Assembly (NCBI GenBank): GCA_902627615.1
Contig: CACOJW010000005.1
Location: 32,774 to 96,773 of the forward strand
Direction of reading: 5' to 3'
DNA: 64,000 nt
Source: an uncultured marine group III euryarchaeote
Lineage (GTDB): Archaea; Thermoplasmatota; Poseidoniia; MGIII; CG-Epi1
Under the pieces are notes generated by a model. It worked only from the letters and a program-made list of their open reading frames with translations, was not told the origin of the DNA and did not search any database. Shown in pieces: positions 14,507 through 47,087 of this stretch. Both the position numbers and the translations under genes were made by a program. Numbering within the stretch: position 1 is the first letter of the stretch; each line of letters opens with the position of its first letter.

Positions 14507-15199
14507 TTAATTCGTCACAGCACTATCTAATGAAGACGTGTGGTTAGGGCTCTCTTTGCCTGGCTCAAAATAAGAAATCATGCAACTATCATCAACTTTA
14601 AAAATTAAAGTATCTCTATCATTAAAATTTATTGATAGACTCAAAAGCAATTCATTAAAGCCCTCTAATTGATGCGAAACTATATCCTTACTCTTTAGGT
14701 TATTGTATTTTTTTCTAAGAGCTTCTATAGCCATTGGTATTTCGGTAGTTGACTCAATAATATCAACGATTTCAGTATAAGCTTTACCATAAGGATTATG
14801 CGTAGTTGATTTTCTTTTATCAAAAAAATATTCGGGAGGTTTCAAAAATATCTTTAAAGATAATAGTTTCTTATTGATATGCTTAAATCTATCCTCACAA
14901 AATTTATTTAAAAATGACATTTCTAATATTTTAATATTAGTTTCAGTGGCCTTGTACCATTTAACAAAATTCGAATGATTTTTCTGATTTTTATTAATAA
15001 AGGAATCTTTCATTTTCTTTTCTTTTTCCCACACCGGAGCATTAGCTGAATAATACCAAATTATTCCAATAAAAATTGAAAGAAAGAAAAATATAGCAAA
15101 ATACTCAATGATTATGGTTACAATCCAGTATAATATAGCTACTATGAAGATACCAAGCCAAAAAAAAGCAGTTACTGCGTCATCACTATTACTAGACAT
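14507..15199 (-). CDS. Hypothetical membrane protein (2 N-terminal TM helices plus a soluble domain)
   Basis: Hydrophobic 'FFWLGIFIVAILYWIVTIIIEYFAIFFFLSIFIGIIWYY'. It lies 9 nt downstream of the preceding gene. No recognisable motif. Confidence 0.5.
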   Translation of the reverse strand: MSSNSDDAVTAFFWLGIFIVAILYWIVTIIIEYFAIFFFLSIFIGIIWYYSANAPVWEKEKKMKDSFINKNQKNHSNFVKWYKATETNIKILEMSFLNKFCEDRFKHINKKLLSLKIFLKPPEYFFDKRKSTTHNPYGKAYTEIVDIIESTTEIPMAIEALRKKYNNLKSKDIVSHQLEGFNELLLSLSINFNDRDTLIFKVDDSCMISYFEPGKESPNHTSSLDSAVTN

Positions 15200-15208
15200 A
15201 ACTCGTAT

Positions 15209-15979
15209 CTATGATAACAGCTCCTTTTTTAAATTTTCGAATTCTGCTCCATTTATTTCTCCATTATTTCGCATCTTAATCAGCCTTTCTAACTGTTCAA
15301 CTTTCGAATATGGTCCGCTCTCTAGATCTAAGGATATTTTGGAATCACTTTCGGTCGATATACCTACCTGAAGTTTTTTTTGCTTCTCATCTTCTACTCT
15401 TTTTTTTAACTGAGCTTCCGCAAATTGATTTTCTATACCTTCCTTTGATTGGAGATAGGCTATTTTTTCACAATATGCCCTTAACCCTTTAGTGGCATTT
15501 TTAGAATATTGTCTTTTTGTATATTCTTTTATATCTTTTTCTGTTACTAATCTATTTTTCAAAAACCAAGTTTTTTGGTTATGAGACCAACGGAAACCGA
15601 ATTTTTTTAGATGATTTCTAACGCTAGCCATATCTCCAGGGTATGCACACCTGATATAGGTGTCATTACCAACGTGCTTTATCTCCAATTCAACTTGCCG
15701 AGGCATACCGCCTTGATCGTAAACACCAAACAACCAGCGCCATCTTACAGCATCCGCTGAATCATCTAGTTGTTCCGTCCAATAGTTTTCTTCATCTTTC
15801 AACAACCTAAGCAACTTATCTTGAAGTGTAGTATCATTAAGATACATTTCTCCTATCTCAGATTCAACATAGGAACGTATCTCTGAGTAACGGGATGGAT
15901 TACCAAAATCAATTCCGTCACCGCGTATGCTATTGCTGTTTCCCCAGAAGCCCATAGTAAATGAGGGGTGCCGAACCAC
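15209..15979 (-). CDS. Hypothetical protein with C-terminal SHOCT-like tail
   Basis: C-terminus 'VEQLERLIKMRNNGEINGAEFENLKKELLS' fits the SHOCT short C-terminal domain pattern. The start is GTG at 15979 or ATG at 15955. Confidence 0.5.
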   Translation of the reverse strand: MVRHPSFTMGFWGNSNSIRGDGIDFGNPSRYSEIRSYVESEIGEMYLNDTTLQDKLLRLLKDEENYWTEQLDDSADAVRWRWLFGVYDQGGMPRQVELEIKHVGNDTYIRCAYPGDMASVRNHLKKFGFRWSHNQKTWFLKNRLVTEKDIKEYTKRQYSKNATKGLRAYCEKIAYLQSKEGIENQFAEAQLKKRVEDEKQKKLQVGISTESDSKISLDLESGPYSKVEQLERLIKMRNNGEINGAEFENLKKELLS

Positions 15980-16092
15980 TCCCGTTCAGACACCCTTTGT
16001 TATAGTTTTGGTAATGCTTTACCACCATCATTTTCCCGAAGGAATCATTTGGAGTGCATCATTGCCATACTGTAGCACTTATAAAAGAATAT

Positions 16093-17385
16093 TTACACCC
16101 TTATTTCTGCATGAATTATTTTGAATTGGGCAGAACCATGAATCAGCGGATATTTAACTAAAGGCACCTCATGTCTTATCAAAAATAAAATATGCCCTGC
16201 GCTAACATAATTTTTTACTCTTTCATCAGGTGATTTAATCAATTTGACAAAGTCTGCTGGTTTCTGGATTTCTTTCATTTCACTATTAACTAAAGGACCC
16301 ATTCTAAGAGAAACTCTGCCGAATTTTCCTAATTGCGTAGCTGAATTACTGCCAGTATAATCCAAAATTTTTTGATATCTGTTCCTCTGCACTGTCTTCA
16401 AACTTATTGCTTGTATTTCATTTCCCGAACTAAAAAGATAGATGTCTGTAAGACGATATTTTGCGATTGCTTTTTCAAGCTTTCTAACTACCTTACTAAA
16501 TTTTTGATTCTTAAAAGATAGCAAAATTGCATGTCGCCCCTTAGTCCCTAAGACCGAACTTATTACATATGTTGAATACACAACTCGTTTTACTGGTTTA
16601 ATCTCAATTTTTTTAGAAAATATGGAAGGTAATGTTAAAAATTTAGGCCATGTAAACCTTGGAATGTTTACTGAATTTGGTAAACGAGGTATATCTGATA
16701 TCCAATTAATTACAGGTTGATTTATCTGGGACCGAGTCAGCAGAGTACAAGTATATCCTGTTTTTGAATTTATAGTACCAGGTAATCGTATTATTCTTCT
16801 AGTATCGACAGTTACAGATGAATCGATTGTTATCCCTTGTTCCTTTATTTTATCTACCAACTCTCTTCTGACCTTAATTATTTCCATTTCTCTCTCAAAT
16901 GGATCTGCAATTGAAACACTTTTCTCATCTTCATATATTACATGAAATCCCTTACTGCCGCTGAAAGCTATATACTTCAATGAATAGCCAGTTTTATCCA
17001 TAAAATCAATTAATCTTTTACAATCCTTACGAGTCTTTTCTAGATTTCTAATAGATAGAGGCTCTCTATCTAAATCAAAAGCAATATCATTATTCAAAAC
17101 AATACCTGATTTTGTAAAAATAGTTCTTTCTTTGCCACGGGGCCCTAATGTTGTAGGATTTAGATAGGTTGATGTAGAGTAATACACGTCTCTAGGACTT
17201 AGATTAACTAACTTCTTTTTCATATCCTCTGTATCATATATACGATCTTTAATTTTTAAGAATTTATTTGATGATGAAATAATTCGAAAATGCCTTTTAG
17301 AGCAGTCTGTTAAAAACGATAAATCAATTGTGTTATTAGAATAAAACCTACTGAAAATATTTTCTTCACTATTTCTATTAACCAT
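16093..17385 (-). CDS. Archaeo-eukaryotic primase catalytic subunit-like protein (PriS-like) with about 170-aa C-terminal extension
   Basis: AEP motifs I 'IAFDLDRE', II 'IAFSGSKGFHVIYED' and III 'SVTVDTRRIIRLPGTINSKTGY', plus the PriS-like N-terminus 'SPRDVYYSTSTYLNP'. Confidence 0.65.
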   Translation of the reverse strand: MVNRNSEENIFSRFYSNNTIDLSFLTDCSKRHFRIISSSNKFLKIKDRIYDTEDMKKKLVNLSPRDVYYSTSTYLNPTTLGPRGKERTIFTKSGIVLNNDIAFDLDREPLSIRNLEKTRKDCKRLIDFMDKTGYSLKYIAFSGSKGFHVIYEDEKSVSIADPFEREMEIIKVRRELVDKIKEQGITIDSSVTVDTRRIIRLPGTINSKTGYTCTLLTRSQINQPVINWISDIPRLPNSVNIPRFTWPKFLTLPSIFSKKIEIKPVKRVVYSTYVISSVLGTKGRHAILLSFKNQKFSKVVRKLEKAIAKYRLTDIYLFSSGNEIQAISLKTVQRNRYQKILDYTGSNSATQLGKFGRVSLRMGPLVNSEMKEIQKPADFVKLIKSPDERVKNYVSAGHILFLIRHEVPLVKYPLIHGSAQFKIIHAEIRV

Positions 17386-18220
17386 TTTTAATATTAAAAT
17401 AGGAACTCAATTCTTCATTAAGCTCCTCTGTCATAATTTCTAAACCTGTGCAATCTACTTTCTTTCTTTTCAGTTCAGATAAGCGTAAGACAAATATATC
17501 TTTTACAGCTTTTATATGATTCATCTGAACACGAACTACATCGCCTTTTCTCTTAAGATTATTGTAAATAGCAATTGCTTGGACAAAGCCATTTTCAGCC
17601 TCCCATTTAGATGCAGTCCTCATTTCTCTTGATTCAAAATCCCATATTTCTCCAAAATTAGCTATTGGTGCCCTATCAAAGGAGCTCGCGGATCGAGACA
17701 TTGCTCCATCGTAACTAGGCTCGCCACGTTGCCCTAATGTTCGCGTCATATCATATAGATAAATTAGTATTCCTAAACCCCATAAAATACAACAAATAAC
17801 ACAAACCAAAAGACGATTACTATTGTAGCCTATATCATGATGCCTCTTTAGAGATACTACACAAAAAGGGTAAAGTAATAAAATCCAAACAAGAAGAAAT
17901 TGGTGAAGGATTGGGTTTGTATACTCAATATAATCTGCATCACAATTTATAACGGCACTATTGCTCTCCCAGTTACTTTGCCAATAATCTGAAGTACCTG
18001 TACATCTTTCCATAAAATCGTCATAGTATGAAGATGATGAGACTGTATACAATTTCCAAAAATAATAATACCAGATAAGAGTTATGTATAACCAAAACCA
18101 AAACCAAGTTCGAACATTAATTCTCCCATTTGGTGAAAAATAAATATATAGAACATAAGATCTTGGATTTGTTACTGAACGAGGATCCCACCAACTAGAT
18201 AGTTGCCACCACTTGCTCAA
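17378..18220 (-). CDS. DUF805-like membrane protein with C-terminal helical extension
   Basis: 'NGRINVRTWFWFWL', 'LKRHHDIGYNSN' and 'GQRGEPSYDG' fit the DUF805 pattern (GRIxR...RRLHDxG...G.N.YG). 8-nt overlap with the primase-like gene. Confidence 0.55.
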   Translation of the reverse strand: MSKWWQLSSWWDPRSVTNPRSYVLYIYFSPNGRINVRTWFWFWLYITLIWYYYFWKLYTVSSSSYYDDFMERCTGTSDYWQSNWESNSAVINCDADYIEYTNPILHQFLLVWILLLYPFCVVSLKRHHDIGYNSNRLLVCVICCILWGLGILIYLYDMTRTLGQRGEPSYDGAMSRSASSFDRAPIANFGEIWDFESREMRTASKWEAENGFVQAIAIYNNLKRKGDVVRVQMNHIKAVKDIFVLRLSELKRKKVDCTGLEIMTEELNEELSSYFNIKNG

Positions 18221-18244
18221 AATAAACCCCCCCTAAAAAGTAAT

Positions 18245-18961
18245 TCAAACATTAAAACTATTAAGCTCCAACCTCAAAACTTCTAGATTAGAATAAAGAT
18301 CCTCACAAGTAATACCTTTGTCAGCCATTCTTTCAGATTGCTTTTCTAAACTATTTAAAAGAAAAATTAAATGATTTCTCTTAGCTAACTTAGCTCTTTT
18401 TTTATCTTTTAATATTTCGTATTTTTTAATTGCTGTAAAATAATCATTTCTCTCTAAACTGAATATTGCTTCCCTCTGTAGTTTTTCCCTTCTATCTTTA
18501 AAGTTGTAAATATTAGGAACTGGACCATGCTCATTAGTATGTGGCTCACCTTTTTTGAAACTACAATATAATCCTAAAGCTAAAAATCCTATAAAATAAA
18601 GTATGCTACTTACAAAACTAAAAAATATTATTACTCCAGAAGAATCTTGATCATGACCTATATCTTTCAATCTTTTATAAGAAAGGGCAAAAAAAGGGAA
18701 AAAAGATAAAAAAACCGTTAAATAAAAGAATGAATAAAAAATAAAATAGTAAAAATTAAACCCTAATAAAATATAAAACACTAAATCGAGAAATAAAATG
18801 GCAAATAAATTAATTAAAGAAATTGCTACTATTGATAAAGCATGCGAAACCACCCCTCTGCGAAAATCTGAAGGTCCTATTCTCCCTTTCCAAGAATAAA
18901 GCAAATAGTTATTGTAACTCCATGCTGAATCAACATTCCTAGGTTCAATAAATTCAAACAT
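18245..18961 (-). CDS. DUF805-like membrane protein with C-terminal helical extension (paralogue of 17378..18220)
   Basis: 'KGRIGPSDFRRGV', 'YKRLKDIGHDQDSSG', 'KKGEPHTNEHGP'. The C-terminal tail is alignable with that of its neighbour ('AI..Y..LK.K....NH'). Confidence 0.55.
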   Translation of the reverse strand: MFEFIEPRNVDSAWSYNNYLLYSWKGRIGPSDFRRGVVSHALSIVAISLINLFAILFLDLVFYILLGFNFYYFIFYSFFYLTVFLSFFPFFALSYKRLKDIGHDQDSSGVIIFFSFVSSILYFIGFLALGLYCSFKKGEPHTNEHGPVPNIYNFKDRREKLQREAIFSLERNDYFTAIKKYEILKDKKRAKLAKRNHLIFLLNSLEKQSERMADKGITCEDLYSNLEVLRLELNSFNV

Positions 18962-18970
18962 AAAGACTAC

Positions 18971-21496
18971 TTATTTGCCTGTCTGACTTTTATGAATTAT
19001 ACTGTCTTCGACGTTTGCGCTACCATCACTACCAATATTAGATTTACTAATAACTGAATCCTGTATATTGATCACATTATGAGTAGGCTCGGCACCTTCC
19101 AACCTAGACAATATTGAAGCTGCAACAGGTGCATCTCTGTGTTTAGAGGCCACCTCTCTAACCATTTCTATATCAACCTCCATATCTTTCAAATCGCTTA
19201 ATCTAAAGTTAGAAGTTAAGGTATCACACAGCTCAAGGAAAGAATTCTTTTCCCTCACAGGACTTTTGTTATATCTTTTCTTAATAGCTTCCCATGCATC
19301 ATCAATAGCATCTTTTTTCAATGTTTCAAACAAACCAGTATCTTCGAATTCCTTACGAATTTCCTGAATGTCTGACCTAAATGGATTGGCTGCACCCTGT
19401 CCCTGAAGTATATCTACCCAAGTATCGTGCGGAAATCTAACCAAACTTCCTTGACCTGATAAATAATCAACAGAACGATTGAACGTTCTCCTATCGTAAA
19501 CATCATCAAATTTTTCTTCCATTGGTTCATCAATTTCATCGGCAAATGCTCTCAGTAACTGCTCGTGACATCTCCTCTCTTCAACGTGATTTGCTAAGAA
19601 AATCAAACAACTCAATGTGTGCAAGCCTCCCGTTCTATATTCATTGCCAACCTTTAAGAGTCTTTGAAGAATCATAGTTACATATCCTGCCATTCCCTTC
19701 TGAGCATTTTCCTTCAGATAAGTTTGACTTAAACGTCGTACATCACTGTACACCATCTCTTTAATCAATGAACCCACATATATTGGACTTCCCTGCGCAT
19801 ATGAAACCAAGGTTTTAACTGCTTTAGTGTCAAACAATATTGTGTTCACATCTAAAGTTTTTAAAATTAAAGATTCCATTTCGTCATCGCTGAATCTTGG
19901 AACAGTTAAGCGTGTAAATTTCTTCCTAAAATCAACTGGCAATTCTGACCATTCAGCCTCTCTAGATGACAAAATTAAGCCACTCATTTTTTCTTTAGAT
20001 GCGATTACATTATACAAATCTGGTTTTTCGGAAATATCATCATAAAATAATCTAATCTTAAATTGCTCGTGAGCATTACCGATATTTTCATTAGTTATTA
20101 TTCCAACTGGTTCTCTCTCCATTAATTTATCAAAAATCTCGAACAAAAGAACAGTCTTACCAACACCTGGTTCTCCAATTATAACAAAATTATCTTCAAA
20201 GGAAGATTCAACAATATCTCTTACTATTTCCTTCCTTTTTGAATCCAGGTGTACATTTCCTCTAAGGTTTTTAGGAAGTGCCCAATCTTCCATGATAATT
20301 TTTGGATCTGTTGGAACTTCGAAGTATGACGAAATGGCATACTTATCTCTATTATTGTGTAAAAAATCTAAAATTACTTTGTTATTAGGATAGGCCATAT
20401 AAGATTCCCACCTTTTTGAAAAGAATTCTCCAACAATTGATTCTTCTTCAGATAAGTCTGTTGGAATTTCCCATTCCGGTTTTAGCTTAATGGCTTCTTC
20501 CTTAGGAATTTCTTCCTTAACCTTCTTTTGAGATTTAGATGGTGTATTAACAACGCCTGGCCGTTGAATCTCAACCCATATTTGTTCGTCTACACTTGTT
20601 TCCGCACTATCATATGATCTAACGGCATCAACTGTGACCTTTACCGGTATATTTCCTGGAGTCGAAGGTATAAGTCCTACTACTATTTCCTCAGAATTAC
20701 CTGGCGCTATCTCCCCAGTAGATAAAGAACCTCCTGAACCTGCAGAATTGATGCCATCAATAATTAAACCAACTGATTTTGCCTTAGCCTTACCTTTATT
20801 TTGTAGTAAAACAATAGCTCTATTAGATTCTCCAGAAACTAAATCATCGGGTAATGTCACCTTGATATCTGGCCTCCAACTATTAAGTGAATTTTTAACA
20901 GACTTTATAGCAGATTCCGAAACTTCAATACAACTTTTTAATTTGCGTTTCTCTAACAATTGCTCTGCAGATTCTTCCTCTGGTACAAATTTTTCTATTA
21001 GTATGTGGTCTTTAGCTTCTATTATCAATTCATTCAACTGAGAAACTAACCCCTGTGCTTGCTCGTAATCCCCTAACTGTGAACGCATCGCTTCATTATC
21101 TGATGAAATTAAGTTGTTTGCTTTCTTAAATTTACCAGCCATCATCATCTCATTTATTTCCGATTTCAAGTCTTCAAAACTAGTATCGTGAACTAACTCA
21201 AATGTATCCATCATTTCGTATAAATTCTTCGTATCCATATAGGCAGTTTTACAATTTTCAAGCTCATTGCCAAGACTTGAACCCAGTTTACCTGCAGAAA
21301 TATAATCACCTGAATTGAATGCATCCTTTACTTCTGTAATTTGATTATCCGATAATTCAAAGCCAAAATCTATTAATTCATCTGACAAAACTCGAACCCT
21401 ATCGAGCTTCTCTTTCGAATCATCAAATTCGTTTTCTAATTTATCGGCCTCTGCAATGGCCTCATTTAATTTTGAAAGCAATGATTCGTAAGTCAT
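18971..21496 (-). CDS. STAND/NACHT-like P-loop NTPase with N-terminal coiled coil and a tentative CARDB-like beta-sandwich
   Basis: Walker A 'VIIGEPGVGKTVLLFE', Walker B 'IRLFYDDI', 'LILSSREAEW' (STAND 'TSR'-like position), helical C-terminal region. The tail carries two 'DS[VI]IxKSxxG' copies. Confidence 0.6.
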   Translation of the reverse strand: MTYESLLSKLNEAIAEADKLENEFDDSKEKLDRVRVLSDELIDFGFELSDNQITEVKDAFNSGDYISAGKLGSSLGNELENCKTAYMDTKNLYEMMDTFELVHDTSFEDLKSEINEMMMAGKFKKANNLISSDNEAMRSQLGDYEQAQGLVSQLNELIIEAKDHILIEKFVPEEESAEQLLEKRKLKSCIEVSESAIKSVKNSLNSWRPDIKVTLPDDLVSGESNRAIVLLQNKGKAKAKSVGLIIDGINSAGSGGSLSTGEIAPGNSEEIVVGLIPSTPGNIPVKVTVDAVRSYDSAETSVDEQIWVEIQRPGVVNTPSKSQKKVKEEIPKEEAIKLKPEWEIPTDLSEEESIVGEFFSKRWESYMAYPNNKVILDFLHNNRDKYAISSYFEVPTDPKIIMEDWALPKNLRGNVHLDSKRKEIVRDIVESSFEDNFVIIGEPGVGKTVLLFEIFDKLMEREPVGIITNENIGNAHEQFKIRLFYDDISEKPDLYNVIASKEKMSGLILSSREAEWSELPVDFRKKFTRLTVPRFSDDEMESLILKTLDVNTILFDTKAVKTLVSYAQGSPIYVGSLIKEMVYSDVRRLSQTYLKENAQKGMAGYVTMILQRLLKVGNEYRTGGLHTLSCLIFLANHVEERRCHEQLLRAFADEIDEPMEEKFDDVYDRRTFNRSVDYLSGQGSLVRFPHDTWVDILQGQGAANPFRSDIQEIRKEFEDTGLFETLKKDAIDDAWEAIKKRYNKSPVREKNSFLELCDTLTSNFRLSDLKDMEVDIEMVREVASKHRDAPVAASILSRLEGAEPTHNVINIQDSVISKSNIGSDGSANVEDSIIHKSQTGK

Positions 21497-21588
21497 AAAC
21501 TTAAATATTTAAACGGAATATAATATTTTGCCTTTGCTGTGCACTAAGCAACAATATAAAGACCAAGAGAAATTGGCTACTAAGATAA

Positions 21589-23811: not shown

Positions 23812-24112
23812 GTGTGTTCCACCTTTACTCCAATTTAATGTATAGTAGAACATTAGATAATATATTCTCTATAAATTAAAAATATAATATAATATATTTA
23901 CCATTAACTTTATATATAACGTGTAATAGTTTGTACTATGTTCGGATATCTCAAACTTGCGGTAATTTTCCTTCCTTGGGAACTTTGTGTCTTACCGCTT
24001 TTGGCTTATCTGTTCTAAAAATAAAGGAAAATAAAAATGATTATATTCACTATATTGAAAGGTACGGTATCTGTAGCGGAAAAAATAATTAAAGGCCTTA
24101 TGTTCTAGTAAC

Positions 24113-24415
24113 GTGCTAATTCAAGGCTATCAAACACTCGCCATCGGACTTACACTTGGCTTAAGCTTTTTGATATTTGGAATTGTATTTTGGGATAGTG
24201 CTACAGAAGACTACTACAACAAATTAAATGGAGAAACTTATGAGATTGACAGTTGCATACAATACATGGAACCTCCCTTAGGGTCAATAGGAGATCGAGA
24301 CAGCTGTGTACAAAAAAGACAGATTGGTGCTTCTTTTTTAATTCTTGGAACTATCAGTCTGTGGGTAACAATCTATTTTAATAAAAAATATCTCTATAAT
24401 TTGATGAAGAAATAA
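24113..24415 (+). CDS. Small 2-TM membrane protein
   Basis: GTG start. Two hydrophobic helices flank a ~45-aa loop with 2 Cys. No recognised motif. Confidence 0.4.
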   Translation: MLIQGYQTLAIGLTLGLSFLIFGIVFWDSATEDYYNKLNGETYEIDSCIQYMEPPLGSIGDRDSCVQKRQIGASFLILGTISLWVTIYFNKKYLYNLMKK

Positions 24416-24450
24416 TATATACAACATATATATTACAAATTTTATAGTAT

Positions 24451-24960
24451 ATGGTTGAATTAGTCACTGGAGTAACATTAGCCGCACGTGTGGCATTTTT
24501 TATAGCTAGCTACAGAGGGCATAAAGCTGAGAGTCATAAGGAAGATGATAGGGCAGTCAGAACCTGGATTATGGAGAGCCTGAATAATATAAGAGAGAAC
24601 GTAACTAACATTATGACAAGCGCATATAGAAATAATAAACCAAATTTAGAGCGTGACGCAAAAGATATAATAAGTGCAATTGATAATTTCAAAAATGAAG
24701 TAAACGTGGCCGTTACTGGAAATATTCAACCAAGATTATCTAAAAAGAGTTCTGCAGACTTAGAGAGCTTAGTTGAGTTCGATTTAAAAATTATAGAGGA
24801 ATTAAACAGTATTTCAAAAGAAAGCTTAATATCTTCTGAAAATAGCGATAGTAAACATTTATCTCCCCGAAATCTTTCTGGCATAAGAAAAGAATTAACT
24901 TCTTGTAGAAACTATTTCAGGGAAAGAACTAAATTCATTGGAGGAATAAAAAATGTCTAA
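24451..24960 (+). CDS. Hypothetical protein (N-terminal hydrophobic helix)
   Basis: ORF with AT-rich TATA-like elements just upstream. 8-nt overlap with the next gene suggests translational coupling. Confidence 0.5.
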   Translation: MVELVTGVTLAARVAFFIASYRGHKAESHKEDDRAVRTWIMESLNNIRENVTNIMTSAYRNNKPNLERDAKDIISAIDNFKNEVNVAVTGNIQPRLSKKSSADLESLVEFDLKIIEELNSISKESLISSENSDSKHLSPRNLSGIRKELTSCRNYFRERTKFIGGIKNV

Positions 24961-26236
24961 AATGGAACATTGGCGAGAAGACCCTGAGGAAGAACTAGCA
25001 TGCGTTGTTGAAAGAGGCGAATTATCTACTTTCTGGAATAACAGTATAGATTTAGTAATAGGGCCTGGAGAAAGTCTTGTTTGGATAAAAGATGGAAAAA
25101 TAGAAGACGTTGTAACTCAATCAAGACTTAACAACATTGGAGGAGGATTCAAGAACTGGCTAGCCACTAAAGTTATTAGTGGGCAAGATGTGAAAATGCT
25201 TATTGTTGATAATAAGCCATTTAAAATAAAAATAGGTGCTGAAGGAAATACTTCAGACAATGTAAAACAGGCAGGAACTGCTACATTAACACTGAGATTA
25301 AACCATGAACAGGCAAATCGAATAGCTGGAGTATTAAAAGAGAAAGCAATCAAAGTTACAAAAGGATTTTTCAGAAAAAGAGAGGTAATTAAAGGATATG
25401 AAACAAAATTACTTAGAAGTGACATTGAGCAAATGTTTGCTGAAGAGGCAAATGCAAAAGTTTTCGGACCTACAATCAAGGGATTTAGTGCTGCCGAATT
25501 TGGAAGCAGTGATGTCAGTTCACGTATAGAAAGTTCCGCACAAATAGAATTACGAAATACTCTAGACTTATGGGGTATGTCTTTAGAAAATATTTATGTT
25601 ACGTGGGGATCCAATGAATATCAAAACTGGATGGCAACGCGAGCTCCTACCCTATGGGGAAAATTCGCAAAAAGAGAAGATAAAATCCAAGATGAAAAAT
25701 GGAAAGATGAAGATTGGGAAAGAGAAAGGGAAAGAAAAAGACGTAGAAGACGTGCAGACTTTGAAGATGACATGGATGATGAAGACTATGAATTCGAACT
25801 TGAAGCACGTAGACGTAAAAGAGAAAAACGTAGAAAAGAGTGGGATAAAGAAGATAGGAAAGATGAGAGAGACGATGAAATTGACGAAACAGTACACTCT
25901 GAGGATATTACAGACTTAAAAAGCACTAGAAAAAGAGACAGAGATAAGAAAGATGAAGAGCAAAGGCTTCAGCTAGAGAAAAAGGAATGGGAGCAAGATA
26001 AAGAAGAATTGTCTGATTTAATGGACTTGAAAGACCGTATGCATGAAAAGAAGATGGAAGAAAAGCGTCTCAATCAAGAAGGTGAACAAAAACTGGCCCA
26101 AATAAAAGCTGATGCAGATAAAAGAAAATATGACATGGATGCCTATGAAAAAGGCGCAGATAAATCCGATAAAAGAACAAAAGATATTCTGAATGCAAGT
26201 TCTGGAAAAAATAGTTCCACAAAAGAAAATGACTAA
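24953..26236 (+). CDS. SPFH/Band-7-like protein (tentative) with long K/E/R/D-rich tail
   Basis: The N-terminal ~230 aa ('LVIGPGESLVWIKDGKIEDVV...MLIVDNKPFKIKIG...') resemble the Band_7_1-type SPFH layout. The C-terminal ~190 aa are almost entirely charged ('ERERERKRRRRRADFEDDMDDEDYE'). Confidence 0.4.
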   Translation: MSKMEHWREDPEEELACVVERGELSTFWNNSIDLVIGPGESLVWIKDGKIEDVVTQSRLNNIGGGFKNWLATKVISGQDVKMLIVDNKPFKIKIGAEGNTSDNVKQAGTATLTLRLNHEQANRIAGVLKEKAIKVTKGFFRKREVIKGYETKLLRSDIEQMFAEEANAKVFGPTIKGFSAAEFGSSDVSSRIESSAQIELRNTLDLWGMSLENIYVTWGSNEYQNWMATRAPTLWGKFAKREDKIQDEKWKDEDWERERERKRRRRRADFEDDMDDEDYEFELEARRRKREKRRKEWDKEDRKDERDDEIDETVHSEDITDLKSTRKRDRDKKDEEQRLQLEKKEWEQDKEELSDLMDLKDRMHEKKMEEKRLNQEGEQKLAQIKADADKRKYDMDAYEKGADKSDKRTKDILNASSGKNSSTKEND

Positions 26237-26280
26237 ATTATTATAGAAATGCCTTAATATTGTGACATATTTAGATTACT

Positions 26281-26835
26281 ATGTTTGGAAGGAGATTTGG
26301 TGCCAGATTTAACAATCGCGGTTTTAGGCCAAATTTTTCAGGTAATGAATATGAATCTAAATTTTCACCTTCAAATTGGAAACCATACCACCACTTTATG
26401 TTTGTTTATGTAGCTTTTAGAGATTTAAAGTATATGGAAAAAGGAAATGTACGTCATGGGCAAATTATGGAGTCCGATGAATTTAAGATAGAAACAAGCA
26501 AGGTCACTAACGCGGCCATGGGTTGGTTTCCAGAAATAGTACTTGGAATGAATGAAGAGATATCTGTAGAAGAATTTTCGGAACAATATCAGAAAGTTAT
26601 AGAATATTCCATGAATACCTTTCATAACGGAGAAAATACTGATGATTTTTTCTCTCAATTCGAATACTCATTGAAAAATATCAAGACCTATCTAAAAGGA
26701 TTAAAGGATAAACTTGAGCTAGTGTTAGAGGATTTGTGGGATATAGCTACTGTTGATAATGAACTAGAAAATAGAGAGAGAGAGATGTTTATTTTATGCT
26801 CTAATATATTTGAGATTCCAATTAATTTGGAATAG
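26281..26835 (+). CDS. Hypothetical protein with TerB-like C-terminal helix pair (tentative)
   Basis: 'LEDLWDIATVDNELENREREMFILCSNIFEIP' resembles the TerB 'aDG/D..l...E...l' repeat. Weak, motif-level only. Confidence 0.35.
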   Translation: MFGRRFGARFNNRGFRPNFSGNEYESKFSPSNWKPYHHFMFVYVAFRDLKYMEKGNVRHGQIMESDEFKIETSKVTNAAMGWFPEIVLGMNEEISVEEFSEQYQKVIEYSMNTFHNGENTDDFFSQFEYSLKNIKTYLKGLKDKLELVLEDLWDIATVDNELENREREMFILCSNIFEIPINLE

Positions 26836-27804
26836 TTAAATTTCACTTCTGTTTATTACTGAATCTCTTATCTCTACCTTTTTCGCAACGTAGTCTCCAC
26901 TTACATTAATATTTGTAGTTGGTTTTTGACGAATTCTCTTGAATTCAGTTTTATGCTGTTTTGTTGCTCTGAAAGTTCTGACATTTATTAATTCAGGCCT
27001 TATAAGGTCAATAACCGAATAACTACTACTATGCATAATAATAGAATCATCAGATATTTGTTGAATAGCCAGCCCTTCTTTTTGTTCAAGAATCATTGTA
27101 TAACAATCTTTTTCAGGTGAGGAAGGTATAACTCCCAGATAATCTTTTACTCCTATTTTCAAGTTTAAATGATCCTCATTAGCAGGAACATAAAAACCGT
27201 TCACTTGGTGCAGCAAGCATTCCTCTCCCGCATGCTCAGTTCCCTGTAATCTTCTATCAATTTCTTCCTGTTTTTCTAATGATTCATTTTGGAATCTATT
27301 CATAACTTTGTGATTCTTTTCATATTTTGAATAAAAATTATCAATATTTAGATTTTTGAAATGTACTCTGCTGTTAAGTTTTAACTCTGCTCCGTTGACT
27401 TCCTCAATTTCCAGACTGTGCTCGTATACATTCGAACTGTCAAAGGCAATGATGCATTTATTACCAAACCAATCCCATTTTTTCAAAGTTCTAGAAGAAA
27501 TAACATCGTAATCATTGCCCATGCCTTCATAACCAAAAGATGAGAACAAGTCTCCATAATTTATCTCTGGATTATAAGGGACAAAAGTTTTCTCTTCATA
27601 AGTGCATTCATGCACTACAGACGTTCCTACCCATTTTCCCTCAATGCTTTTAGAAATTATTCCTAGCTCTGCCTGTTTAATAGGGTTTGAGTATGAAAAA
27701 TTTGGATGCCTTATTCTTAAATTGTCAGCACCATATTCCCTGTATTCGCCCTTGCCACTTTTTGGTTTTTTAGGGGATTTAGGTGGCATTTTGAATGTTT
27801 TCAT
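26836..27804 (-). CDS. Hypothetical protein ending in the 'DSVINRSEI' tail
   Basis: Basic N-terminus 'MPPKSPKKPKSGKG', no TM. C-terminus 'KKVEIRDSVINRSEI*'. It lies 9 nt downstream of the channel gene. Confidence 0.55.
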   Translation of the reverse strand: MKTFKMPPKSPKKPKSGKGEYREYGADNLRIRHPNFSYSNPIKQAELGIISKSIEGKWVGTSVVHECTYEEKTFVPYNPEINYGDLFSSFGYEGMGNDYDVISSRTLKKWDWFGNKCIIAFDSSNVYEHSLEIEEVNGAELKLNSRVHFKNLNIDNFYSKYEKNHKVMNRFQNESLEKQEEIDRRLQGTEHAGEECLLHQVNGFYVPANEDHLNLKIGVKDYLGVIPSSPEKDCYTMILEQKEGLAIQQISDDSIIMHSSSYSVIDLIRPELINVRTFRATKQHKTEFKRIRQKPTTNINVSGDYVAKKVEIRDSVINRSEI

Positions 27805-27813
27805 TTTTCCAAC

Positions 27814-29007
27814 TTATTTCCTCAGTTCATCCAATATTTCTCTTTGATTTTTCTCCAACTCATGTAACCTATTTTCTAAATTCTGCTGCATTATATTAAG
27901 CTCTTCATTTTCTTCCCCAGTCATGACTGTTGTTAGTGTTGCTGTAAATACACCTGCAAGAATCATGCCAGTAATTACTAAGAATACTGTCAAAATTCTC
28001 CCTAACTCCGTTTGAGGATTATAAATATCTCCAAAACCACCAGTTACTACTGTAGTAAAACTCCACCACATACTTTCAGCAAGAGTACCAACACTGGGAT
28101 CGCTATCGCCTTCCTTATATGTTATGACGAACGCTCCGAGAACTATGACTAATATAACACCTTTGAAAGACTTCTTCATCAATTTGACGTCCATTATATC
28201 TGCAAATTTATCAAACCCTTTCCAGAAAAAGAATACAATCCTTACAACACGAAGCAGTCTCACAAGGCGGAAAAGTCTAGCTAACCTCAATGTACGGCCG
28301 TATCGTAAAGCCCCTCCATCTGGTATCGGTATTGAAGTTAGTAAATCAATCCAATTGTTTCTGATAAACCACCTTTTATTTTCTGCAAAGGTATATCTAA
28401 GATAAAATTCCATCAAAAATATTATACAAAAACAAAAGTCAATCCAAAAAATATCTTGTTTTAATTCAGCGTCAGCGATTGGATCTAGATATAACATATC
28501 GTAAGAAATAACTGATATTATCAAGACAATCATGACCATAATTGTCCCTTCTAATATATTTGCAGATTTTTGGCTACCTAAATATTTGGAAACACCTTCC
28601 CGCACGATTTTTTCTTGTCTAGCATCATAAATTTTAACTCGATATTCTTCTAAATCTTCATGTATTTTAGAATATTTACGACATTCTTTCCTTGCCTCAT
28701 CATAAAATGAAGCATTTCCCTTGACGAGATTTTTATGAAGTTTAACTTCCAATTTTACCAGTTCTTTTTTTATCTTTTTTTGCTCTTTTGTAATATCATC
28801 GTGCATGTTCTGCAACATGTCAGATGGCAGATTTACTATCCTCACATTTTCAACTCTGTTTAGTAAACTCTGAAAATCTAAATGTTCTGCATCGGGCTCA
28901 CTAGGATTAACTAGTCTATCATCTAACTTATTTTCATCTGCATCTTTTAAAGCCACGTAATTTACTATGCAATCAGTTATATTAATTAATTTCTTTTTGC
29001 ACTGCAC
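27814..29007 (-). CDS. Voltage-gated (6TM, Kv-like) potassium channel with N- and C-terminal coiled coils
   Basis: S4 voltage sensor 'RTLRLARLFRLVRLLRVVRIV'. Pore/selectivity filter 'WWSFTTVVTGGFGDI' fits TxxTxG[YF]GD. Confidence 0.8.
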   Translation of the reverse strand: MQCKKKLINITDCIVNYVALKDADENKLDDRLVNPSEPDAEHLDFQSLLNRVENVRIVNLPSDMLQNMHDDITKEQKKIKKELVKLEVKLHKNLVKGNASFYDEARKECRKYSKIHEDLEEYRVKIYDARQEKIVREGVSKYLGSQKSANILEGTIMVMIVLIISVISYDMLYLDPIADAELKQDIFWIDFCFCIIFLMEFYLRYTFAENKRWFIRNNWIDLLTSIPIPDGGALRYGRTLRLARLFRLVRLLRVVRIVFFFWKGFDKFADIMDVKLMKKSFKGVILVIVLGAFVITYKEGDSDPSVGTLAESMWWSFTTVVTGGFGDIYNPQTELGRILTVFLVITGMILAGVFTATLTTVMTGEENEELNIMQQNLENRLHELEKNQREILDELRK

Positions 29008-29053
29008 TGAAAAATTATATATACTCCTAAAATATATAGCAAGTAGTGATAAA

Positions 29054-29515
29054 ATGGCATGGAATCAATTTTGTGATATGAACTATATGTTTGTTTTTCT
29101 TTCAAATTATGGAGATGAAGAAACAACTAATGATGAAATCTATGAGATGAGCTCTAAATTATTAGATCTCACTTATGAAAAAGATAGGGATGGCGACGGA
29201 ATAGTGGACAGCTCATTAACCGATGACGAGCGCGATTCAGTAATTGAACAGTCTTGGCAAAAATATGGAGGTCTCGATCAAGATGGAAGAGCTTCTCAAT
29301 TTTTCACTTCAGCCAGGAAAGTAGCCGAATACTTCCAATACAGTCACAATAAAATGCAATCATTTGTTAATGGCATGGTTGATATAGCATCTGCAGATGG
29401 ATACATAGACGGAACTGAAGAAGAAATAATAAACTCATTAGCCGATGCTTGGGGATGCAATGGTGTTCAAATTTCGTACAATGCTGGAATTCCCGTATTC
29501 CTTTTCGTCTGGTAA
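29054..29515 (+). CDS. TerB-like protein (tentative)
   Basis: 'NGMVDIASADGYIDGTEEEIINSLADAWG' fits the TerB 'A.aDG.i...E...l' motif. I use ATG 29054 rather than the tracked 28967 start, which would overlap the divergent channel gene. Confidence 0.45.
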   Translation: MAWNQFCDMNYMFVFLSNYGDEETTNDEIYEMSSKLLDLTYEKDRDGDGIVDSSLTDDERDSVIEQSWQKYGGLDQDGRASQFFTSARKVAEYFQYSHNKMQSFVNGMVDIASADGYIDGTEEEIINSLADAWGCNGVQISYNAGIPVFLFVW

Positions 29516-29540
29516 AAAAGACTGAAAATTAAGGTGAATT

Positions 29541-30410
29541 ATGAGTAACAGTACTTTTGCAGGTAAATCTACTGAAGACACTATTCGCAACTATGCTGAG
29601 ATGCTCATTGATGATTTGAATGCTAACCTTCCTGAAAATGCTGGAAAACACTGGGATAAAGCTAGAGAGCTTGATAATCAAACCGCCAAGGAGATTTTTG
29701 GTACTGAATACAGCGATAGGATAGGTCAAGCATATCACAATTGTTTAATTAATTACAAATTTGATGAAATGGCTACGGCTTGGAAAGTATTAGAGGGAGT
29801 TCCCGTAGTTCTAGGCGGAATTGGTACGGGGGCACAACCAACAGTCAATCCTCAATACGTTACACTAGTAGATCAAATAGATTCTAAATATAATGAAATT
29901 AAGGGACTTGTGTTTGCAGCAACTAGTATATGTCCACAGAGTGCTGATTTGCATGGTGCTGCAGCTTGGATTGGAGTTTTGCATTTAGCAGCCGGAACTT
30001 TACCACCTGAAATTAATAGGATAAAGGATGAGAAATACAATAGATTAAAACCTGATATTGATAATCATATCAGGCAAGCCCTTGCACAGAATCCAAGCCA
30101 CAAACAGGCTTTGGAAGCAAAGGAAAGACTAAAAGAAGTAGACGAACACGAATTTAAAATTCCTGGTGGAGATTGCTTCATAGCAACAGCTGCTTATGGC
30201 ACTCCATTTGCCGATGAGATAGATATTCTTAGAAACTGGAGAGATAATTTCTTACAAGCATCTTATGCAGGACGTGCATTCATTAAAACTTATTATTCAT
30301 TAAGTCCTCCCGTAGCTGATAATATCCGACAATCTGGAGGAAAAAGAAAAATTGTTAGAACAACTTTAGGGCCAATTGTCAAAATCTTAAAAGATAAATA
30401 TTCTAACTAA
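29541..30410 (+). CDS. Protein with C-terminal 'CFIATAAYG' box domain
   Basis: 'GGDCFIATAAYGTPFADEIDILRNWRDNFL...YYSLSPPVADNI' matches a recurrent C-terminal module of archaeal and bacterial proteins. I recall it being named a CFI-box; the name is uncertain. Confidence 0.5.
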   Translation: MSNSTFAGKSTEDTIRNYAEMLIDDLNANLPENAGKHWDKARELDNQTAKEIFGTEYSDRIGQAYHNCLINYKFDEMATAWKVLEGVPVVLGGIGTGAQPTVNPQYVTLVDQIDSKYNEIKGLVFAATSICPQSADLHGAAAWIGVLHLAAGTLPPEINRIKDEKYNRLKPDIDNHIRQALAQNPSHKQALEAKERLKEVDEHEFKIPGGDCFIATAAYGTPFADEIDILRNWRDNFLQASYAGRAFIKTYYSLSPPVADNIRQSGGKRKIVRTTLGPIVKILKDKYSN

Positions 30411-30457
30411 TTGTTTATTACCAAAATATCTTAAATAACACAGGGCAGTAGATAATC

Positions 30458-31336
30458 ATGAATACTGGTGCTAAGATTGTAATTGGTTTAGGAATTCTAA
30501 TTATAATTATAGGAATTATACTTTTGACAACAACGGGAGATGATTTTGATGAAGATGTTGAAGAAGGGATAGTTTACGAAGGAGCAGATGGAAAAACTAA
30601 AGTTGAAAATGTAGAACCAAATACTGGATCTAAGTACTGGGTTCATCTTGTTGACGCAGAATTTGAAGGTGGTGGTGGTGGTGGATACAATGAGGCTCAC
30701 GGCAATAGTACATGGAACTTAACTCAATCTGATTGTAATCTTGTTAAGTCATTTACACTGAAAGATAGTGATGATAATCAAATTTTCTACCCACAATGTA
30801 ATTACATTGAAGATAGTACCGAAGACAAATATATCGTCATTGGCCGCCTGTGCAATACTCCAGTCTACGACCGCTATGGGTGGGAAGTAGCAAATGAAGG
30901 TGAAGGCTGTAGAGAAGGTACATACACTTGGGACACTGATGGAAACAAAGTCATGGTCTATGATGTAGAGGCAATTTTTGGCGCTATAATTGACATAATA
31001 ATGCAAGCATTGGGGTCTTTCGGAGCTTGTTGCTGTGGTTCAGTTATTTTAATCATCGGAATAATAATGGCTGCAACAATGGAAGATAACAATGCTAATC
31101 CATATGCTCAACAAACAACTACTAACACCGGACAAACTCCACAAGCTTCTAGTGGTTGGGACGAAAAAGAGGACTATATTAGAAAAGAAGTAAACCAAAC
31201 TATCAACATAAATGACAGTGTGATAAACAAAAGTAATCTTGGAAGTGATGAAGAAATACCTGACAAAAGTGAAATGGCTGTTACTGAAGAAGAAGACGGC
31301 AAAAGTGAACACAAGGGATTCGCCCCACCACCTTGA
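30458..31336 (+). CDS. Cys-rich bitopic/2-TM membrane protein with 'DSVINKSNLG' in the C-terminal tail
   Basis: N-terminal TM 'IVIGLGILIIIIGIILL', Cys-containing ectodomain, second TM 'GACCCGSVILIIGIIMAA', tail 'TININDSVINKSNLGSDEE'. Confidence 0.55.
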   Translation: MNTGAKIVIGLGILIIIIGIILLTTTGDDFDEDVEEGIVYEGADGKTKVENVEPNTGSKYWVHLVDAEFEGGGGGGYNEAHGNSTWNLTQSDCNLVKSFTLKDSDDNQIFYPQCNYIEDSTEDKYIVIGRLCNTPVYDRYGWEVANEGEGCREGTYTWDTDGNKVMVYDVEAIFGAIIDIIMQALGSFGACCCGSVILIIGIIMAATMEDNNANPYAQQTTTNTGQTPQASSGWDEKEDYIRKEVNQTININDSVINKSNLGSDEEIPDKSEMAVTEEEDGKSEHKGFAPPP

Positions 31337-47010: not shown

Positions 47011-47087
47011 TGGTGGGCCAGACGGGATTCGAACCCGCGGTCGATCGGTTAAGAGCCGATCGCTTTACCTAGCTAAGCTACTGGCCC
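47011..47087 (-). tRNA. tRNA-Lys (anticodon CUU) with genomically encoded CCA
   Basis: The reverse complement folds as a cloverleaf: acceptor GGGCCAG/CTGGCCC, D-stem GCTT/AAGC, anticodon stem ATCGG/CCGAT with loop CTCTTAA, 5-nt variable loop, T-arm GCGGG-TTCGAAT-CCCGT, discriminator A plus CCA. 77 nt. Confidence 0.9.

Follow-up and report, generated by a model that had tools for sequence, protein, structure and literature searches.

We analysed a block of 16 open reading frames (ORFs) which occupies about 17 kb (positions 14507-31336) of a 64-kb stretch of contig CACOJW010000005.1, the whole of which is referred to as the window. The genes are designated g1 to g16 in window order from left to right, and the stretches of relatives used for comparison are numbered L001-L113, L001-L086 being the loci of the g7 family. 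A preliminary description of this DNA had by implication presented the block as a variable conflict or stress island in a member of the Poseidoniales. Neither part of this picture is supported. The window is closer to metagenome-assembled genomes labelled Marine Group III (MGIII) or Poseidoniia than to those labelled Poseidoniales (Marine Group II, MGII), and the block yields no PADLOC system, bears no hallmarks of mobility, is not foreign in composition and is syntenic in close relatives. We consider it rather probable that in this Marine Group III-type archaeon (Poseidoniia) the block constitutes a chromosomal neighbourhood, lineage-specific and vertically inherited, in which separate modules adjoin, and neither one system nor a mobile island. 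Alignment of the locus with those of relatives, as had been proposed, confirms the synteny for close relatives only; in distant ones the anchors of the block, namely g7, g3 and the core of g6, are unlinked. Since these anchors separate at greater depth, the block is apparently not one system.

The ORF list reproduces the coordinates of the tightly packed block as well as its four strand units, i.e. g1-g6 on the minus, g7-g11 on the plus, g12-g13 on the minus and g14-g16 on the plus strand. Likewise, the short gaps and overlaps described for many junctions are present, with 9 nt at g1/g2, g5/g6 and g12/g13 and overlaps of 8 nt at g3/g4 and g9/g10; g11 and g12 abut. A distance of 24 nt separates the left edge of the block from a gene of the DAO family (FAD oxidoreductase), and the flanks consist, as described, of Aminotran_4 and DAO genes on the left and of SemiSWEET and photolyase genes on the right. 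The plus unit from 21589 to 26835 retains its coordinates but not its status as a single transcript, as it is split by an AT-rich intergenic gap of 301 nt between g7 and g8 (23812..24112, plus strand), which was recognised by reading the sequence and has no Rfam match. This gap is likely to provide the promoter region for g8-g11, and because of it the plus unit probably gives rise to two transcripts, g7 likely being transcribed on its own. Two micro-ORFs are situated within the gap, the hydrophobic MFGYLKLAVIFLPWELCVLPLLAYLF of 26 codons (23939-24019, plus strand) and MIIFTILKGTVSVAEKIIKGLMF of 23 codons (24038-24109, plus strand). At this site close relatives are 99% identical, and L003 carries a different gene there.

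Judged against the cut-offs of Pfam and NCBIfam, and with the aid of homologues and motifs, the domain vocabulary initially assigned to the block turns out to be essentially right (a STAND-like NTPase, a HerA-type ATPase with a membrane domain, two DUF805 proteins, PriS, SHOCT, SPFH, two TerB proteins, a Kv channel, a CFI-box protein and a Cys-rich transmembrane (TM) protein). The calls of DUF87/HerA_C, of DUF805 in two proteins, of DNA_primase_S, Ion_trans, TerB in g14 and CFI_box_CTERM pass the respective cut-offs. SHOCT in g2, TerB in g11, nSTAND3/NACHT in g6 (P-loop only) and CARDB in g6 remain below them yet are correctly placed.

Genes of the block

The gene g7 (21589..23811, plus strand) encodes an ATPase of the HerA/FtsK superfamily (residues 1 to about 430) which continues at its C-terminus into a polytopic membrane domain (residues 510-736) with about five to six TM segments. 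Its Pfam matches are DUF87 (44.7 bits, cut-off 23.2), HerA_C (39.7 bits, cut-off 22) and TrwB_AAD_bind (34.3 bits), its relatives in the PDB are HerA and YjgR chains (E 5e-12 to 6e-7), and a Walker A motif, GSTGSGKT, together with a Walker B motif, FFMDE, places it within the HerA/FtsK superfamily. Full-length homologues of 50-54% identity occur throughout MGII (205 tblastn-confirmed stretches in GTDB representatives), and essentially every MGII species locus retrieved contains one, the neighbours of which vary. Relatives in genome contigs were located by an alignment-based scan; a scan with the single sequence returned none. Within 10 kb of the g7 homologue, none of the other block genes is found in 78 MGII species loci or in complete MGII contigs. 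In another MGIII genome (L006) the homologue, which is 72% identical, adjoins ThiF and LPG-synthase genes. A NurA, SIR2 or DUF4297 partner is present neither in the block nor in 86 related loci. Judged by its sequence, g7 is not a canonical HerA; it probably acts as a membrane-anchored polymer translocase.

The product of g3 (16093..17385, minus strand) is a small subunit of an archaeo-eukaryotic primase (AEP) of the PriS family with a family-specific C-terminal half (Pfam DNA_primase_S, 28.9 bits, cut-off 26.8). Its scores with the NCBIfam PriS equivalogs range from 39 to 58 bits and are thus far under the cut-offs (58 vs 326 bits). The best matches in the PDB are the archaeal PriS structures 1g71, 1zt2 and 1v33, and the catalytic AEP motifs I-III are intact by sequence (FDLD, SGSKGFH and DxxVTxDxxRxxRLPGTxNSKTG). 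Because of these intact motifs and the best matches to archaeal PriS, g3 is most likely the replicative primase and as such would have a housekeeping function; no second copy of PriS is present within the window. Full-length homologues are found at 50% identity in Thermoplasmata and Methanomassiliicoccus and at 39% in Methanoregula, in unrelated chromosomal contexts. Following those of MGIII, the best 120 homologues of g3 stem from Thermoplasmata, Methanomassiliicoccus and Methanomicrobiales and are 50-37% identical along their full length. Of the source-named hits among these best 120, none is labelled Poseidoniales or MGII, although MGII dominates the hit lists of g7. Either the PriS of MGII is unusually divergent or the history of g3 is not simply vertical.

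The third anchor, g6 (18971..21496, minus strand), encodes a STAND-like P-loop NTPase of 841 residues, as indicated by its motifs and by an AlphaFold2 (AF2) model. In this model, the mean predicted local distance difference test (pLDDT) value of which amounts to 82, a coiled coil (residues 1-206) is followed by an Ig-like domain (209-311), by a core composed of NTPase, helical and winged-helix domains (about 346-802) and by a disordered tail, with pLDDT values below 50 at residues 806-841. The CARDB match of 20.7 bits is sub-threshold; the model shows a beta sandwich at 209-311. Invariant in 65 homologues are the Walker A motif GEPGVGKT (441-448), hhhhDD (482-487, with LFYDD at 483-487), GSP (569-571) and FPHD (688-691), the last of which would, as we infer from the model, belong to the winged-helix domain. 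Walker A, a Walker B of the hhhhD(D/E) type, GxP and the winged-helix His of STAND proteins are thus all present. All curated STAND models score below threshold (nSTAND3 20.5/27.2, NACHT 17.7/26.7 and NB-ARC 15.2/23.5 bits) and cover the P-loop only. A Foldseek search of the PDB returns Clp, RuvB and RFC as well as SAMD9, EfAvs5 and Dark, all of them weakly (E 1e-5 to 1e-4, TM score about 0.2); the alignments to the STAND proteins (EfAvs5, SAMD9 and Dark) span about 480-550 columns and are longer than those to AAA+ proteins. We accept the label "STAND-like" for g6.

According to the family alignment, the core of g6 is 81-93% identical at genus level vs 39-41% for the N-terminal coiled coil. 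In MGII the NTPase core (about 50% identity) is combined with N-terminal domains of the WD40, PKD or LamG type and has other neighbours. This replacement indicates that the N-terminus is exchanged in a modular manner. In a clade of g6 homologues at 38-40% identity (L095, 2-7162; L096 and L097) the homologue is preceded by a giant ORF (at least 2,386 residues) which runs into its start, and it is followed by ThiF/rhodanese and TPD genes. In the MGIII locus L006 a ThiF/TPD pair abuts the g7 homologue. This suggests that the giant gene and the NTPase were gained or lost at the ThiF/TPD site.

The remaining genes of the first minus unit comprise two small proteins and two DUF805 proteins. The product of g1 (14507..15199, minus strand; 230 residues) possesses an N-terminal hydrophobic hairpin (TM-like segment at residues 5-54), belongs to no family and has no match in Pfam, NCBIfam, PADLOC or PHROGs. 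It evolves fast: in L003 its positional orthologue is only 33% identical, compared with 70-85% for the genes around it. The soluble g2 product (15209..15979, minus strand; 256 residues) ends in a SHOCT-like tail (Pfam SHOCT 20.3 bits, E=4.5e-4, cut-off 27); its L003 orthologue is 35% identical and also shows a weak SHOCT match, and a sequence search of the PDB gave nothing significant for g2. The DUF805 membrane protein g4 (17378..18220, minus strand; 28.3 bits, cut-off 25.7), predicted from its TM segments to carry a cytoplasmic helical tail, shares 23-39% identity with its positional orthologues in relatives. Its paralogue g5 (18245..18961, minus strand; DUF805 35.7 bits) is about 24% identical to g4; L003 contains one DUF805 copy and L007 two.

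Between 15.1 and 18.9 kb, a tract containing g2-g5 including PriS shows only 88-97% nucleotide identity to contigs of the same species, while both sides reach 99-100%. Synonymous divergence (dS) amounts to 0.06-0.20 in this tract vs 0.008-0.04 in the adjoining g1, g6 and g7, and the ratio of nonsynonymous to synonymous divergence (dN/dS) lies between 0.14 and 0.66. Positive selection was considered for g2-g5 and rejected, since dS is raised too and dN/dS stays below 1; for the same reasons we regard the segment as a recombination tract or old allele, probably imported by homologous recombination. It coincides with the lowest guanine-cytosine (GC) content (0.30-0.31) and with the only tetranucleotide outlier of the block.

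Downstream of the gap, g8 (24113..24415, plus strand) encodes 100 residues with two predicted TM segments and no assignable family; a homologue located elsewhere in L003 is 51% identical. The product of g9 (24451..24960, plus strand; 169 residues) has an N-terminal TM anchor and is a distant relative of the LIMLP_15305 family (NCBIfam NF047596, 33.6 bits, E=3e-8), to which it aligns almost end to end with a score far under the cut-off. It is 76-78% identical in L003 and L007 and always located immediately upstream of g10. The stop of g9 overlaps the start of g10, and the pair is translationally coupled. The g10 protein (24953..26236, plus strand) apparently consists of a divergent SPFH (Band 7) domain at about residues 1-240 followed by a charged tail rich in K, E, R and D. 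An exhaustive HMMER search for g10 yielded 117 representative clusters only, and 56 homologues were aligned. The SPFH assignment is supported via these homologues, 31 of which match Band_7 (best E=1.9e-10), and not by a direct Pfam match of g10 itself. Zinc ribbons, present in 29 of the 56 homologues, are missing from g10. No other protein of the block is as conserved as g10, which is 85% identical in L003 and L007. Sequence searches of the PDB with g9 and g10 produced nothing significant.

The right-hand part of the block centres on g13 (27814..29007, minus strand), a voltage-gated-type K+ channel with six TM segments and an N-terminal coiled coil (Ion_trans 62.9, Ion_trans_2 41.3 bits), whose sequence exhibits the arginine ladder of S4 and the selectivity filter TGGFGD and which is 70-72% identical in relatives. 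Divergent from this Kv gene lies g14 (29054..29515, plus strand), encoding a TerB-domain protein (27.1 bits, cut-off 24.4), and this divergent pairing of Kv and TerB is kept in L003, L102, L109-L111 and L113. The claim of two TerB proteins thus stands for g14, which exceeds the gathering score; g11 (26281..26835, plus strand) on its own remains sub-threshold (Pfam TerB 16.5 bits) and is called TerB-like in view of its pairwise similarity to g14 (E=8e-5). In relatives g11 shares the strand of the Kv gene and g12 and separates the two; in the window it is inverted onto the opposite strand. The soluble orphan g12 (26836..27804, minus strand; 322 residues) carries a terminal motif treated below, has no match in Pfam or the PDB, even if its family profile is included, and gives a single-sequence AF2 model with a pLDDT of 31. 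The product of g15 (29541..30410, plus strand) contains a CFI-box C-terminal domain (NF041770, 85.5 bits, cut-off 40, profile positions 1-69 of 69), and g15 comes after g14 in relatives, too. At the right edge, g16 (30458..31336, plus strand) encodes a Cys-rich membrane protein, recognised by its TM segments, which has no family or PDB match and a 49% identical homologue in L003. A CyanoTRADDas_TM hit of g16 (19.4 bits, residues 7-39) was rejected as compositional, as it covers a single hydrophobic helix.

A scan of the metagenome collection by DNA pattern for the g12 tail motif identified 15 loci. In all ten metagenome loci concerned (10/10), g12 lies downstream of a Kv gene. The order CFI-box, TerB, Kv, TerB-like, g12 (one to two copies) and second Kv is found in six loci (L102, L105, L109, L110, L111 and L113); in L105, which is truncated at the first Kv gene, the order is seen only from there onwards. 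Parts of it are visible in the shorter loci L099, L104 and L110, and L112 shows the arrangement of the window itself. As this order is kept across metagenome loci, the right-hand part of the block is a genuinely conserved module. In relatives, g12 is duplicated in tandem, and a second, divergent Kv gene (38-40% identical to g13) comes after it (L102, 3176-5143; L109, 2495-4444; L104); the window contains one g12, and the second Kv gene is absent.

Conservation of the block and its reading as separate modules

Five Tara/JGI contigs of the same species (L089-L092 and L112) exhibit an arrangement identical to that of the window from DAO through g15. In relatives of about 75% identity (L003-L005 and L007), g1-g7, g9 and g10 are kept in order, and L003 additionally has g13-g15 as well as g11-, g12-, g8- and g16-like genes. 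It differs in its left flank, formed by SemiSWEET/GGACT, in the inversion of one segment and in possessing extra genes and a second Kv paralogue. The variable occupancy expected of a defence island is thus not observed: the five same-species contigs are identical in arrangement, and L003 and L007 keep most of the content. The products of g3, g6, g7, g9, g10, g13 and g14 are 68-85% identical to their orthologues in L003 and L007, which, with 74% for the flanking SemiSWEET, makes these core genes no less conserved than ordinary genes of the chromosome. Within the population, all block genes are under purifying selection (dN/dS 0-0.66).

The preliminary description had found no named system to which the block could be mapped, and PADLOC likewise returns only generic matches, namely HerA for g7, the P-loop families Nhi/AbiO/MkoA for g6 and a single, weak match to NsnC for g11, with no system-level set among the block proteins. 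PHROGs yield only generic primase and ATPase matches in the block, among them weak ones to primase and terminase-like families. NCBIfam, too, points to no system and to no viral origin. No tRNA is located within 15 kb of the block, the only tRNA of the window lying at 47011-47087. A search for att-like border repeats gave none but short AT-rich chance matches, no recombinase domain was detected among the 16 block proteins, and Rfam recognises no element in the block. In GC content and tetranucleotide usage the block does not leave the spread seen across the window, with the exception of the DUF805 genes at 16-19 kb (z about +3), a stretch AT-richer than its surroundings; beyond the block, a segment at 44-47 kb is about equally deviant. 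This second outlier (44377-47010, plus strand; GC 0.316, z=+2.5) ends with a stop which abuts the tRNA-Lys gene at 47011-47087 (minus strand), and it encodes 877 residues with a signal-peptide-like N-terminus, a long Asn/Ser/Ile-rich body, a TM segment and a C-terminal region which by eye resembles an HTH domain.

In the reading as a neighbourhood of separate modules, the first module would be the minus-strand operon, in which PriS (g3) is accompanied by the putative signalling NTPase g6, by the DUF805 proteins g4 and g5 and by the small, fast-evolving g1 and g2. The membrane-anchored HerA/FtsK-family ATPase g7, near-universal in MGII and MGIII, would form a second module, which may drive the movement of a polymer, DNA or peptide, at the membrane at the expense of ATP. 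As a third module, the TM-anchored g9 and the SPFH protein g10 might constitute a membrane-scaffold pair, joined by the small TM protein g8 and serving membrane homeostasis. A similar role in membrane homeostasis may be envisaged for a fourth, the ion-channel module, made up of the Kv channel g13, the TerB-like g11 and g14, the orphan g12 and the CFI-box protein g15, followed by g16.

A number of observations weigh against this modular reading. Modules of the STAND, HerA, SPFH and TerB kind are found repeatedly in defence and stress systems. In L003 almost the same set of genes is still assembled in one place despite other flanks and inversions, which could reflect selection for clustering. 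The products of g1, g2, g4, g5, g11 and g12 are only 23-39% identical to their counterparts, as expected of conflict-related or surface-exposed proteins, and g6, g12 and g16, genes of one and the same block, have in common a terminal peptide that the remainder of the window lacks. These points would be accommodated by the view, implied by the preliminary description, that most or all of the block represents one membrane-linked stress or anti-virus system in which g6 senses and acts via g7, the SPFH and TerB proteins, DUF805 and the K+ channel, a view to which the tight packing with its 9-nt gaps and overlaps, the confirmed domain vocabulary and the divergent transcription of g6 and g7 in the window, in L003-L005, L007 and L089-L090 also lend themselves. 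Yet we consider such a single system unlikely: in MGII g7 is solitary and near-universal, in L006 it is unlinked, and the g6 core and g3 are unlinked elsewhere; an apparently replicative primase resides within the operon, the core genes are highly conserved under purifying selection, no PADLOC system emerges and the composition is not island-like.

If the modular reading applies, the block may serve as a caution that a dense "conflict vocabulary" (STAND, HerA, SPFH, TerB and SHOCT) in an uncultured archaeon does not by itself make a defence island. The locus adds members to families already known, from a lineage that is itself uncharacterised. Among these, the g7-type ATPase, found in essentially all sampled MGII and MGIII genomes, presents itself as a candidate membrane translocase for DNA or peptide in a group without a cultured member.

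The shared terminal peptide and remaining alternatives

The peptide common to the termini of g6, g12 and g16 reads INIQDSVI(N/S)(R/K)SxIG or, more loosely, (V/I)xIxDSVI(N/S)(R/K)Sx(I/L)(G). Two copies, VINIQDSVISKSNIG and NVEDSIIHKSQTG, are located in the C-terminal tail of g6 (18974..19075, minus strand), which is disordered in the AF2 model; the last 12 residues of g12 (26839-26874, minus strand) contain KVEIRDSVINRSEI, and one copy, TININDSVINKSNLG, is found in the C-terminal tail of g16 (31208-31252, plus strand; 21.5 bits with the motif model of the g6 family). This hidden Markov model (HMM) was built from 57 tails of the g6 family and tested on 16,182 ORF fragments in 1.45 Mb, with the result that true instances score 12-26 bits and everything else at most 7.7 bits. 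The g12 protein and its homologues reach 12-15 bits, and a SAP protein of L003 reaches 13 bits. Searching the six frames of the window with the loose pattern gives five matches, four of which are the two copies in g6 and those in g12 and g16.

In the g6 family the motif is kept in all clades, including members at only 38-50% identity, with one to three copies about 18 residues apart. The g12 family, whose body is about 30% identical between lineages, has nearly invariant last 25 residues. At N-termini, the motif occurs in further proteins (L003, 20166-20204; L100, 1837-1869; L107, 1670-1702). In relatives, a SAP/TM protein whose gene adjoins the second Kv gene begins with it. On unrelated contigs it heads a protein which by eye resembles a cation-diffusion facilitator (CDF), with a His-rich stretch after the motif, as well as another TM protein. 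The g16 orthologue in L003 is devoid of the tail motif. In about 1.3 Mb of MGII loci the motif is absent outside the g6 homologues, no motif-bearing neighbour stands beside the g6 homologues in L094-L098, and the motif was looked for in the families of g3, g7 and g10 without being found. No papers turned up when full texts were searched for the motif in variant spellings. We treat the peptide, as its spread among these sequences suggests, as a lineage-wide short linear motif. Its presence on transporter and TM proteins of unrelated contigs argues for a general linear motif and not for a link specific to the block.

A motif common to an NLR and to the protein of the adjacent gene is what marks amyloid signalling (Dyrka et al., bioRxiv 10.1101/2020.01.06.895854). 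In BASS pairs, 91% of which are adjacent and collinear, the motif comprises about 25 residues and is found at the N-terminus of the NLR and at the C-terminus of the effector (10.1101/2020.01.06.895854). By analogy with such pairs (HET-s/NWD2, BASS/Bell), the C-terminal peptide of the g6 family might conceivably be a docking or templating signal linking membrane proteins of the K+ channel-associated, Cys-rich and transporter type, an idea we regard as doubtful. Correspondingly, the subset g6, g12 and g16 of the block, joined in relatives by the SAP/TM protein, could form a peptide-linked network in which docking or beta templating relays the activation of the NTPase to the K+ channel module and to membrane proteins; this seems to us slightly less probable still than the single system. 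What such a network would share with the amyloid pairs is a short motif common to the terminus of a STAND-like NTPase and to proteins encoded nearby, occurring in the g6 family as one to three pseudo-repeats, and the clear separation of scores by the motif HMM, the constancy of the g12 tail despite its drifted body, the retention in all g6 clades and the disorder of the tail would be consistent with it. In g6, however, the motif is C-terminal and not N-terminal, it extends over about 15 instead of about 25 residues, g12 and g16 are encoded 5-10 kb away on either strand, and no Bell or HeLo effector is present; the missing motif neighbours in L094-L098, the motif-free g16 of L003 and the unrelated transporters and TM proteins bearing the motif speak against the network as well. 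If it did exist, it would represent an undescribed archaeal peptide-linked signalling network, similar to NLR amyloid signalosomes with reversed polarity and with membrane-transport targets. Irrespective of this, a STAND-like NTPase family with swappable N-termini and a lineage-specific terminal peptide, shared by this NTPase and several membrane proteins, may be useful by-products of the analysis for the biology of Poseidoniia.

Finally, an integrated mobile element or provirus remnant that contributed both the primase and an ATPase of the packaging or conjugation type, a possibility which an AEP primase and a HerA/VirB4/FtsK-class ATPase within 5 kb, weak PHROG matches to primase and terminase-like families and the AT-richer 16-19 kb might bring to mind, is highly improbable, as integrase, tRNA target and flanking repeat are missing, relatives of g7 are absent from 2.9 million viral contigs, g3 and g7 occur as single chromosomal genes whose conservation extends across orders, and the synteny within the population is stable.

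Comparison with known systems

With archaeal replicative PriS, g3 shares the intact motifs I-III and the best PDB and NCBIfam matches, and its homologues are annotated by JGI as DNA primase catalytic subunit. It differs by scores below the equivalog cut-offs and by a C-terminal half in which some 200 additional residues are conserved.

The group of HerA, YjgR (DUF853) and FtsK-HerA proteins, which includes anti-phage HerA and the Ced DNA-import ATPases, resembles g7 in its N-terminal 430 residues, which match DUF87/HerA_C. In contrast to canonical HerA, g7 has its P-loop at residues 28-35, too early for a HAS-barrel to precede it, and continues C-terminally into a polytopic membrane domain; NurA, SIR2 or DUF4297 genes are not found nearby. 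The scores of g7 are far below the cut-offs of the NCBIfam equivalogs for HerA, CedB, CedD and VirB4 (for HerA, 25-45 bits vs 800-970). Moreover, unlike canonical HerA, it is a near-universal, solitary gene in Poseidoniia.

SPFH (Band 7) proteins are encoded in operons such as those of stomatin/NfeD and of the B. subtilis YdjI type. As in these, g10, whose family matches Band_7, is coupled to a small TM-anchored partner, g9. This partner, however, is not NfeD but distantly LIMLP_15305-like, and in place of the zinc ribbons of most relatives g10 bears a long charged tail.

The STAND class, which after the classification of Leipe et al. 2004 reportedly embraces NACHT, NB-ARC and Avs-like proteins, is resembled by g6 in the succession of Walker A, Walker B of the hhhhDD type, GxP and a conserved His-Asp in the winged-helix region, followed by helical domains, and its homologues likewise exchange a terminal domain (WD40, PKD or LamG). 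Unlike established members, g6 is sub-threshold in every Pfam STAND model and attains equal structural scores with the AAA+ proteins Clp, RuvB and RFC. Its variable domain is N-terminal, and a C-terminal repeat array is lacking. Compared to typical immune sensors the core of the g6 family is highly conserved, and the family is set apart by its unique C-terminal peptide motif.

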